DNA of 64,000 nucleotides from Octopus vulgaris (GCA_951406725.2 OX597814.1:159092001-159156000); one strand, 5' to 3'. Positions 24,501 to 63,135 are shown, numbered from the stretch's first letter. The notes: a model not told the origin generated them from the letters alone. Translations and numbers: made by a program.

Positions 24501-27500
24501 TGAATATATATATATATATATATATATATATGCATATATATATACATACATATATATATATACACATATATATATATGCATATATGTACATACATATATA
24601 TATACATATATATATACATATATATGTATATATACATATATATATACATATATATATACATATATACATATATATATACATATGTATATATATACATATG
24701 TATATACATATATATATACATATATACATATATATATATATACATATGTATATATATATATATATATATACATATATACATATATATATATATACATATG
24801 TATATATATATATATACATATATACATATATATATATACATATGTATATATATATATATATATATATATATATATATATGCATATGTATATGTAAGTATA
24901 TATGTGTATTTATATACACATATATATATATATATATATATATGTAAGTATATATATACAAAAATACGCACATACATATAATTATATATATATATGTATA
25001 TATATACATATATATATATGTATGTATGTATATATATATGTATATATATGCATGTATATATATAGATGTATATATATGTATGTATGTATATATATGTATA
25101 TATATATATGTATGTATGCATATATATATATGCATATATATAAATACATATATATATATGTGTATATATATATATACATATATATGTATGTCCTCAAGAG
25201 GACGATTGGGATCACGTGGATGAGAAAGGCGCGATCCAGAGAGGAGTGGACTGCGTGCTGTGACCAGCGGTGTCAAATGGACGCCTGACGGACTGGTCGG
25301 TCAAAGTGATCAAAGTGATATATGTATGTGTGTATATGTATATATATATATATATATACATGTATATATATGTATATGTATATACACACATATATATATA
25401 TATGTGTATATATATACATGTGTTGAGATTTGGCGTTCTAATTGTACGCACATCTCAGTTAATGCAATTTATCGATTTACTGGAATTATTACATGTGTAT
25501 GTCTCTACCATATGTGCTTGTAGTAGTAGTAGTAGGAGTAGTAGTAGTAGTAGTAATAGTAGTAGTAGTAGCAGCAGCAGCAGCAGTAGCAGCGACGATG
25601 ATGAAGATTATGATGATGGTGATGATAAGGATGATGTTGATGCTGATGAAGATGATGAGCAGACAAGCGCAAGCTATTCTTTAAATATACTATAAAGTTA
25701 CTAGGTCAATCAATGTATATCACTTAAACAGGACAAAAGCTTCACGATATACCCTAAAATATTAGCAGATGATCAAGCGTCACTTGTATACCAATACAGT
25801 AGCTTATACGTTATTACACCAAAGCGTATATTGTTTTTGAATTCTCAAAAAAACAAAAGAAAGTCACATGAAAACTCTACATTCTTCATTTTACTATCAA
25901 GTAACCACATAAGCATTACAAGTTAATGAAATACATATTTCACGAGTTGAACGGAGCACAGATGAACATAAAATCGAAAATATCCGACTCTTTTGAAACC
26001 TAAGCTTCAAATGTTTAGTGAAGCATACTTGTAATACATTTATTCTTCCTCAACAACATAAAACACAACAAGTAAATACTCAAGAACATCGAAACATCGA
26101 AATGAAATAGCGAAAAAAGCCATTAGAAATTTCAGAAACAAGCAAACGAAGACATATATACCAGATAACTATAGTTATAAACGCACAAAATCAACATAGA
26201 TTTTGCATGAATAAAGAAAGCGCAAAGCAAATTAGAAGTTAGTCACCTATCTTTGAATCTGGTTTGGTTTGTGTGTGTTTTTGTGTGTGTGTGTGTGTGT
26301 GTGTGTGTGTGTGTGTGTGTGTGTGTGTGTGTGTATGTGTATGTGTGTGTGTGTGTTTGTGTGTGTGCGCGCATGTATACGAGCAGGTGACTGTGTTTGT
26401 ATATGATGTTAGCGAATATAGATATGCATGGATTTGCATGTGTTTTAGTACGTGATCTCTTCTAAAAATTGGGCGCATATCTGTGTGTGTGTGTGTGTGT
26501 ACTACTGTATGTCATGCTTTAGCTATATTATATATTTGTGTTAGCTATAGATTTCTTCCTATTTATCAACTAATTTCCCCACTTGAACAGTGAAGGAAAA
26601 CAGTGAAAGCGATTGAAATCATTCCAAATTAGACTTACCAACAGTAGATTCAACTTCAGATGGTTTTTCTGAGTGAAAGTCAAAATTAAAATAAGTTTGT
26701 TGCTCAATTATTTCGCACAAAAAACACAAATTTATGTCTATATTTGTTAAAATATTTACATATTCCTATTGTAAAGATTTTGCTACTCAGATCATTTCAT
26801 TTATTAACTATATATCCAATCTATTTAACAGGAGAATGTTTATGTCCGGTGTTTACACGTTTACAAATATTACAAATTATTTCAATTATTCAAGAAATAT
26901 TTCCTAAATATTTTCTCATCAATGTATAAAAAAATTATTAATATTATTTTTTTTAATATACGAAAGTATGATATATATTGAGAATGATATTATAAGTTCT
27001 CATCGCGCGAAGGTAGTTATTCCAAAATTGCTTACCGATGCGAGATTCAGTTTCCGTAACAATTTCTGTGAAATTAACAATGTAATCAATTAAATATTGT
27101 TTGCAAGATTTTGTAAAATAAACAACATATTTTACCTAAAATGTTCATGAATATCTAAGATGACTTTAGTAGCGTTGTATTCAGTGTTAAGTATGAAGTT
27201 TAGATACGTAAGATAAAAAAGAAATAAAAGGCGCTATGAGTGGCGTATACTGATGGGAATGACAATAAACAGGTTGCATGTGGATAGCAACAAAAGTCTT
27301 GAGAAAAGAATTCATACTTCAGATCGAACTTGATATGATATATGCAACACAGAAAGAGCTCTATCAGTACACTCCTTCATTGTACGACCTCATTGGAAGC
27401 CACTCATCCAAAAGACGAGAGAAAGAAGAAACGAACCTGGCATGTGTGTGTTGTGTGTTTTGGGGTTGTATGTGTGTGTGTATGTGAGTGAGTGTGAGTA

Positions 27501-63135: not shown

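Follow-up and report, generated by a model that had tools for sequence, protein, structure and literature searches.

A window of 64,000 nt of Octopus vulgaris DNA (C1:159,092,001-159,156,000, in a genome of 2.8 Gb), by its base composition AT-rich animal DNA with abundant microsatellites, carries on its minus strand a long succession of exons of mostly 30 nt, and thereby raises the question of which gene harbours such a series, how the series came about and what the encoded repeat may do. The obscurin/UNC-89 locus contains a repeat array within which the entire window (1..64000, minus strand) falls. This array of 268 predicted microexons covers 233 kb, would encode ~2,670 aa and runs, in window-equivalent coordinates, from +107,059 to -126,131, i.e. 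past both window ends. Within the window 62 array exons are located, 36 of them in the span 26,639-63,135. The 30-nt exon pattern that a preliminary description had noted in that span is real, but constitutes only a small part of the array, the extent of which had been understated.

A microexon array within the obscurin/UNC-89 locus

The window was scanned with a strict splice-site pattern (YAG-[n]-GTRAGY). On the minus strand, n=30 yielded 56 matches, including an off-pattern chance match at 43,938, as compared to a mean of 1.4 and a maximum of 7 for the other 39 lengths (21 to 60); on the plus strand n=30 yielded 1 match. A position-weight scan, trained on the n=30 matches and applied to the window plus 200 kb on each side, recovered 258 exons, all of them (258/258) on the minus strand. 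Similarity to public models added 8 further exons (24, 27 or 30 nt) to give a catalogue of 266, and two more 24-nt exons outside this catalogue bring the total to 268. Nearly all exons measure 30 nt and the remainder 24 or 27, every length being divisible by three; the introns are phase 1 throughout, and the 266 catalogued exons contain 0 stop codons. A DNA search with one exon and its flanks returned at least 38 matches, every one at the obscurin locus.

The host gene is almost certainly the Octopus vulgaris obscurin/UNC-89 gene. Read from 5' to 3' on the minus strand, 17 Ig matches precede the array, which is followed by ~22 intact Ig exons, SH3, DH and PH, and further 3' by more Ig, 16 Fn3, two Ig, a kinase, Ig, Fn3, a second kinase and a long tail. 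The landmarks are, in window-equivalent coordinates:

+209k to +112k, minus strand: upstream Ig exons
-132k to -184k, minus strand: Ig block 3' of the array
-191.6k, minus strand: SH3 (Pfam SH3_2)
-199.6k, minus strand: DH (Pfam RhoGEF)
-207k/-209k, minus strand: PH (Pfam SOS1_NGEF_PH)
-229k to -401k, minus strand: Fn3 block of 16 exons, located after the RhoGEF region and before kinase 1
from -424k, minus strand: kinase 1 (Pkinase exons -424k to -428k)
from -449k, minus strand: kinase 2 (Pkinase)

The SH3-DH-PH triplet is thus present on successive exons, and among solved (PDB) structures the SH3 matches human obscurin 1V1C best (E 1e-19, as compared to 6e-6 for the second match). The two C-terminal kinases are separated by a non-domain region, an I-set and an fn3, and the terminal exon and tail are 100% identical to 'muscle M-line assembly unc-89-like [Octopus vulgaris]', the cluster of which also contains the obscurin of O. 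bimaculoides. A profile derived from ten ORFs of the locus gave 55 Ig matches, some partial or broken, and Pfam I-set was confirmed for six Ig ORFs; among PDB matches, titin Igs are closer than obscurin Igs to one flanking Ig. The flanking Ig exons detected measure 258-273 nt (mostly 267), every one phase 1. The Ig/repeat/RhoGEF part and the kinase part are collinear on one strand, and the public models are split between them (P0014 spans Ig to PH-Ig, P0004 spans Fn3 to the kinases); the O. vulgaris model CAI9716207.1 covers the kinase end only, and the O. bimaculoides models are split in two.

Like human OBSCN, C. elegans UNC-89 and Drosophila Unc-89, the octopus locus has SH3-DH-PH, tandem I-set Ig and two C-terminal kinases with an interkinase-Ig-Fn3 stretch between them. 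It differs in that its N-terminal Ig region is split by the ~2,670-residue microexon repeat and that a second, 14-residue repeat is located after PH-Ig; furthermore, it has 16 Fn3 between PH-Ig and kinase 1, whereas the cited passages on UNC-89-B mention two Fn3 in all (PMC4865318). For vertebrate obscurin, too, far fewer Fn3 have been described. Among 162 proteins gathered by Ig, SH3 and tail queries, no homologue of the main repeat was found in vertebrate- or nematode-type obscurins, and none with more than 25% identity outside two O. bimaculoides models. The ESM Atlas, queried with an 80-residue variant block of the older of these models (P0006), returned no usable match.

The flanks show some features of their own. 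The 3' Ig block comprises ~20 nearly identical 267-nt Ig exons and several broken copies, ten or so of the Ig exons being separated by 30-nt, Pro-containing linker exons, and tandem Igs similar to this block were found in Argonauta hians. Its copy number is uncertain because a 100-N stretch lies within it (-145,074 to -144,975). The second repeat (-216,486 to -215,425, minus strand) consists of ~18 copies of a V/A/E/P/K unit in one open frame; it is also present in an O. bimaculoides model, and its composition is nearer to PEVK than that of the main array. By eye, the segment just upstream of the obscurin SH3 in P0014 resembles a putative second, degenerate SH3.

Exon classes, units and duplication history

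Six main exon classes, each named by a diagnostic residue, occur in the order K-V-T-D-Q-I, while another 37 of the 266 in the catalogue are variants that belong to none of the six. K, T and Q equal the types A, C and E of the preliminary description (A-class below), and V, D and I its types B, D and F (B-class). Across 26,639-63,135 the order reads KVTDQI KVTQI KVTDQI KVTDQI KVTQI KVTQI KI K. The units of the window are, with single numbers denoting the low coordinate of a 30-nt exon:

57868..63135, minus strand: complete hexamer; K 63106-63135, V 60111-60140, T 59753-59782, D 58681-58710, Q 58232-58261, I 57868-57897
51297..57524, minus strand: pentamer with dead D; K 57495-57524, V 54391-54420, T 54029-54058, Q 51687-51716, I 51297-51326
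53195..53221 (approximate limits), minus strand: decayed D-class exon, blastn E 3e-29 to D exon plus flanks
46412..50952, minus strand: complete hexamer; K 50923, V 48325, T 47815, D 47241, Q 46784, I 46412
41317..46020, minus strand: complete hexamer; K 45991, V 43382, T 42978, D 42201, Q 41710, I 41317
36947..40965, minus strand: pentamer; K 40936, V 38356, T 38024, Q 37332, I 36947
29141..36627, minus strand: pentamer; K 36598, V 31895, T 31141, Q 30147, I 29141
26639..28834, minus strand: partial unit; K 28805, I 27036, K 26639
20125..23713, minus strand: five-exon variant block outside 26,639-63,135; four exons of 30 nt, one of 24 nt (23316-23339)
556..17031, minus strand: 21 additional array exons, recent ~5-kb tandem copies among them (introns 98-100% identical)

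The D exon is therefore missing from 3 of the 6 hexamers in 26,639-63,135. In one of these its remnant lacks the acceptor AG and the donor GT and contains a 3-nt gap and an in-frame TAA, while the surrounding introns remain homologous to the flanks of D exons; in the pentamers 36947..40965 and 29141..36627 a D-exon remnant was sought and none was detected.

The nested periodicity of 10, 20 and 60 aa that had been proposed is borne out by the nucleotide identity between exons at increasing lag (259 30-nt exons of the 266), which is 0.40-0.44 at odd lags, 0.59-0.61 at lags 2, 4, 8 and 10, 0.81 at lag 6 and 0.75 at lag 12. Inside 26,639-63,135 alone the lag-6 peak is blurred (0.64), since three units are pentamers. 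A-class and B-class exons alternate, as had been claimed, at 217 of the 222 classifiable junctions of the array and at 32 of 35 in 26,639-63,135, where the three units without D and the irregular end account for the exceptions; the canonical next exon follows at 212/222 and 31/35 junctions, respectively. The acceptors are class-specific, again in agreement with the earlier claim: of the 16 B-class exons in 26,639-63,135, 11 have the exact sequence TTAATTYCACAG, as against 0 of the 20 A-class exons, and with up to 2 mismatches allowed the numbers are 15/16 and 0/20. From the acceptor alone, leave-one-out assignment to A or B was correct for 36/36 exons, and for 147/148 after de-duplication. At the donor, position +6 is T in 117/118 A-class and 3/111 B-class exons. 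In the exon flanks no enrichment of splicing-factor motifs was found (RBFOX, QKI full site); TGTG and YGCY are in excess near A-class exons, an excess that is confounded by shared ancestry.

With respect to origin, it had been proposed that one ancestral 30-nt exon gave a pair, then a hexamer and then a tandem array. The latter part of this route is supported. In a tree of the 36 exons with their flanks (for which the tool warns of long branches), the A and B classes separate at 100/100, as fits a pair-then-hexamer history, and Q, D, K and V are recovered as groups with support of 80 to 99. A single ancestral exon for both classes, on the other hand, was not shown: in permutations, homology is evident within the A classes (p<=0.00025) and weaker within B (p 0.009-0.064), whereas shared ancestry of A and B yields p about 0.2 (best cross pair K-I, p=0.045 uncorrected). 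All six classes do have a common skeleton, with E/D at position 1, mostly S/T at 4 and E/Q at 5, and together with the equal length and phase this makes a single ancestor plausible. The array would have originated by tandem duplication of exon-plus-intron units, from pair to hexamer to array. Along the array, successive units vary widely in how alike their introns are (identity 0.58 to 1.00), from which it follows that duplication was old in 26,639-63,135 and recent in two other stretches; the fact that some units are 98-100% identical suggests that it is still ongoing.

An assembly artefact was rejected for 26,639-63,135, because the introns of successive units have diverged (0.65-0.73 alike) and the unit order is repeated in O. 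bimaculoides; the 98-100% identical copies elsewhere in the array may include such artefacts. Apart from this, the intronic insertions at 29,480-30,100 and 33,000-35,000 contain an inverted-repeat element with (TTA)n/(AAT)n arms that is common to other introns, and a GC-richer stretch among them resembles a mobile-element fragment. A divergent 5' block (+83k to +107k) has its own four-exon period and counts five 27-nt exons among its members. Three V-class exons (-24,316, -57,462 and -61,386) have lost or GG donors; the one at -24,316 is matched by a counterpart in an O. bimaculoides model, and therefore its donor may have been lost recently or a weak donor 3 nt earlier may be used.

Selection and conservation between two octopus species

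The array exons are under purifying selection. The preliminary description had attributed the persistence of the pattern to selection on the exons, and both comparisons that bear on this agree with it. Firstly, dN/dS within classes is 0.22 in 26,639-63,135 (column bootstrap 0.12-0.36; dS 0.41, dN 0.089), well below 1, with 0 of 5,000 bootstrap replicates at 1 or above, and 0.28 when only distinct variants are counted. For the older units it is 0.21 in a wider 5' set that contains 26,639-63,135 and 0.19 in an independent 3' set (i.e. two of the three sets overlap). Secondly, exon identity (0.82-0.89) exceeds that of the aligned 100-nt flanks (0.63-0.70; shuffled flanks 0.57-0.62). As dN is about five times lower than dS and the second codon positions are the most conserved (0.885/0.952/0.725 for positions 1/2/3 in 26,639-63,135), the constraint acts at the protein level. 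The dead D exon, which decayed while its neighbours did not, forms a natural control. The silent changes that had been listed for Thr (ACG/ACA/ACT/ACC) and Arg (CGC/CGT) are indeed present; the peptides had been called almost invariant, which overstates their within-class amino-acid identity of 0.67-0.89.

A comparison with O. bimaculoides extends these findings. The RefSeq gene model XP_052826240.1, 'obscurin, partial [O. bimaculoides]', has the order Ig - repeat - Ig - SH3 - DH - PH and joins Ig directly to 92 repeat units, which follow the O. vulgaris order and lead back to Ig. Its first 56 units map 1:1 (56/56) to the O. vulgaris exons from +81,635 to +26,639, including the three D losses and unit-specific residues, and by our reading the remaining 36 units match -5,712 to -43,242. 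Residue identity amounts to 463/486 across the matched units (two shorter units excluded) and to 285/306 in 26,639-63,135, as compared to 1,461/1,605 for 17 Ig/SH3 ORFs of the same species pair; in other words, the repeat units (93-95%) are conserved to the level of the neighbouring Ig/SH3 exons (91%). By sequence alone the positional partner is the unique best match for 10 of 54 units, tied for 33 and worse for 11; it is the order that makes the orthology of the units clear.

The 176 of 268 O. vulgaris exons that are without a counterpart in XP_052826240.1 may reflect skipping, assembly gaps or species-specific expansion. The older model P0006 leaves the same Ig exon as XP_052826240.1 and enters the first divergent block (+83k to +107k), which is thus skipped in one model and entered in the other. 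That the two models enter different array exons is an indirect indication of splicing variation; being gene models and not transcripts, they may also differ through assembly or annotation. Units of 8 and 9 residues occur in the O. bimaculoides models as well, and two 10-residue units of P0006 have no canonical O. vulgaris counterpart. The array is already partly embedded in the automatic O. bimaculoides annotation and is hence not new as sequence. No description of it was found among the matches listed in searches of full-text literature that includes few subscription journals.

The encoded repeat and its possible function

The predicted chain consists of 24% Glu, 16% Thr, 15% Val, 9% Ser, 7% Arg and 5% Pro and is nearly free of aromatic, Leu and Cys residues. 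Its FCR is 0.39, its NCPR -0.155 and its value by the FoldIndex formula -0.19 (Ig control +0.11), and this composition predicts disorder. Fully included and fully extended, the array would reach a contour length of ~1.0 um; as a coil its radius would, by a scaling law, be ~21 nm. At the same time the residues alternate: odd positions are 61% charged and even positions 83% S/T/V/I/A (permutation p=0.004, or 0.025 omitting the codon-forced first residue), and the Fourier spectrum has its dominant peak at period 2 and none at 3.6. A single-sequence AlphaFold model, made without an alignment, displays long beta-strands with a 60-residue period (six strands, 102-125/134-149, 162-185/194-209 and 224-245/254-269; block pLDDT mostly 57-63), be it at low confidence (mean pLDDT 48, pTM 0.35; five models 27-48). 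The two structural guesses that had been put forward, an extended beta-type repeat and an acidic disordered tether, are thus each supported in part. A VIA fold search of the model (best Z 5.2) says nothing about the repeat, because all 50 of the 50 matches listed align to the poorly modelled Ig part.

The reading that we favour, with a probability of roughly 0.55, is that the repeat forms a largely disordered, titin-PEVK-like, splice-tunable extensible tether between two Ig blocks. It is favoured because the position between Igs, the exon structure and the tolerance of lost units parallel titin PEVK, and because a spring has been measured in an obscurin orthologue. The near-uniform 30-nt exons and the 258-273-nt Ig flanks are all phase 1, so that any subset of exons could be dropped without a frameshift. 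The tether length would then probably be set by exon skipping. How far the N-terminal Ig block lies from the SH3/RhoGEF/kinase end, and how stiff the entropic link between them is, would depend on the subset included, as is the case for PEVK exons in titin; the Glu-rich segments and S/T sites might add tuning by calcium or phosphorylation. Pentamers, partial units and 24- and 27-nt exons attest to the tolerance in length.

Typical PEVK motifs comprise ~26-28 residues. Like the octopus repeat, titin PEVK is a long, acidic region of low complexity between Ig blocks, encoded by ~100+ short repeated exons (113 annotated) with both conserved and recently expanded sub-regions, as far as described in the cited part of PMC6469411. 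Many short frame-preserving exons (24, 27 and 30 nt) between phase-1 Ig flanks are likewise found here. The octopus array differs in its host gene, in having 268 exons of almost uniformly 10 codons as opposed to 113, and in a Thr/Ser-rich, Pro-poor repeat with strict 2/10/20/60 nesting. P+E+V+K amounts to 48% (51% with Ala), below the 0.54 used by PEVK_Finder according to the same source, and this value and the proline content of only 5% speak against a PEVK-like tether. Moreover, the period-2 alternation and the near-Ig-level conservation exceed the needs of a plain entropic chain.

Repetitive or disordered inserts also occur in an obscurin orthologue, namely the KSP region and the interkinase spring of C. 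elegans UNC-89. The octopus repeat precedes the SH3 and is net acidic, whereas the KSP region is located after SH3-DH-PH and seven Ig (PMC2120741) and is, in the cited passage, Lys/Ser/Pro-rich with 44 KSP motifs (PMC13242403); the octopus class profiles contain no KSP motif, only K-P-S and no Ser-Pro. For the interkinase region, the behaviour of an entropic spring has been measured (bioRxiv 2020.04.03.023374, in the part cited). More widely, invertebrate giant muscle proteins carry lineage-specific elastic inserts, as in the projectin PEVK. Insect projectin PEVK, which resides in another host gene and has exons fewer by an order of magnitude, varies by alternative splicing between 34 and 624 aa, with up to 21 alternative exons (following the cited section of PMC3835035). 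Exon-array springs are a known feature of giant muscle proteins; the octopus array, a candidate for such a spring, is notable for its host gene, scale and regularity. The tandem-repeat segments of C. elegans TTN-1 are another such lineage-specific elastic insert.

A folded or conditionally folded repeat, i.e. a single-layer beta-hairpin ribbon with a 60-residue period that acts as a stiff rod or a stepwise-unfolding shock absorber, is possible but doubtful. It could fold alone or with cations, a partner or a second obscurin chain. The amphipathic period-2 pattern, the V/I/T richness and the modelled strands fit such a ribbon, the conserved prolines cluster at K3, Q3 and D9 and fall in the loops of the AlphaFold model, and exons of ten residues, an even number, would preserve strand parity upon skipping or duplication. 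One face, however, would be about half Glu/Asp, exon-deficient units and parity-flipping 9-residue exons are tolerated, the Ig of the same low-confidence AlphaFold job reached a pLDDT of only 27-47, and the I-class dN/dS of 0.04 in 26,639-63,135, which agrees with a ribbon, contrasts with 1.05 in the 3' old set (5 exons).

It is improbable that the repeat serves as a multivalent binding track or ruler, the 20- and 60-residue units of which dock on a periodic basic surface (candidates being the paramyosin/myosin rod, the thin filament or a small adaptor) while selection keeps the contact motif. The fixed unit length, the class-specific conserved residues and the unit variants kept across species could be explained in this way, and the binding of UNC-89 to paramyosin via its SH3 in C. 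elegans (in the cited part of PMC4865318) places the protein near thick filaments. Still, no known binding motif was identified in the repeat, irregular units break a strict ruler and the negatively charged chain would require a putative basic partner. Very unlikely, finally, is that the array is mostly a neutral by-product of unequal crossing-over, with most exons rarely included and selection acting just to maintain the reading frame, the splice signals and an approximate composition: the recent expansions of near-identical units, the loss of exons, the three units with broken donors and an apparent difference in copy number between the species models are in keeping with it, but not the low dN relative to dS in old units or the Ig-like identity across species. 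An extracellular mucin-like or glycosylated repeat was rejected, as the host is obscurin and secretory-type glycosylation is unlikely in sarcomeric cytoplasmic proteins.

If the tether reading is correct, obscurin would have acquired by convergence an exon array like that of titin PEVK, and one with over twice as many exons as human PEVK has. Regardless of function, the array, with its 268 microexons of nearly uniform length, its dated duplications, its splice sites specific to each class and its dead copies, forms an unusually clean data set for the study of exon-array evolution and microexon recognition. Ig blocks before the RhoGEF are, in the cited part of a 2026 review (PMC12812942), the chordate-type obscurin layout, and their presence in a mollusc bears on the ancestral arrangement in Bilateria. 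According to the sections cited from Kier's review (PMC4757648), cephalopods tune shortening speed via filament and sarcomere dimensions and not via myosin isoforms; squid thick filaments measure 7.4 um in the arm and 0.81 um in the tentacle, the cross-striated fibres of which are without an M band. A sarcomeric scaffold of giant size, into which a modular insert with a contour length of up to ~1 um is built, offers a concrete candidate for setting this filament geometry. It is rather unlikely that octopus obscurin is a titin-like elastic filament of micrometre scale, with as its spring a new class of beta-ribbon made of 10-residue exon modules that are spliced muscle by muscle; if true, the combinatorial inclusion of ~270 microexons would be a dial for filament and sarcomere geometry, by which cephalopod contraction is tuned while the myosin remains unchanged.
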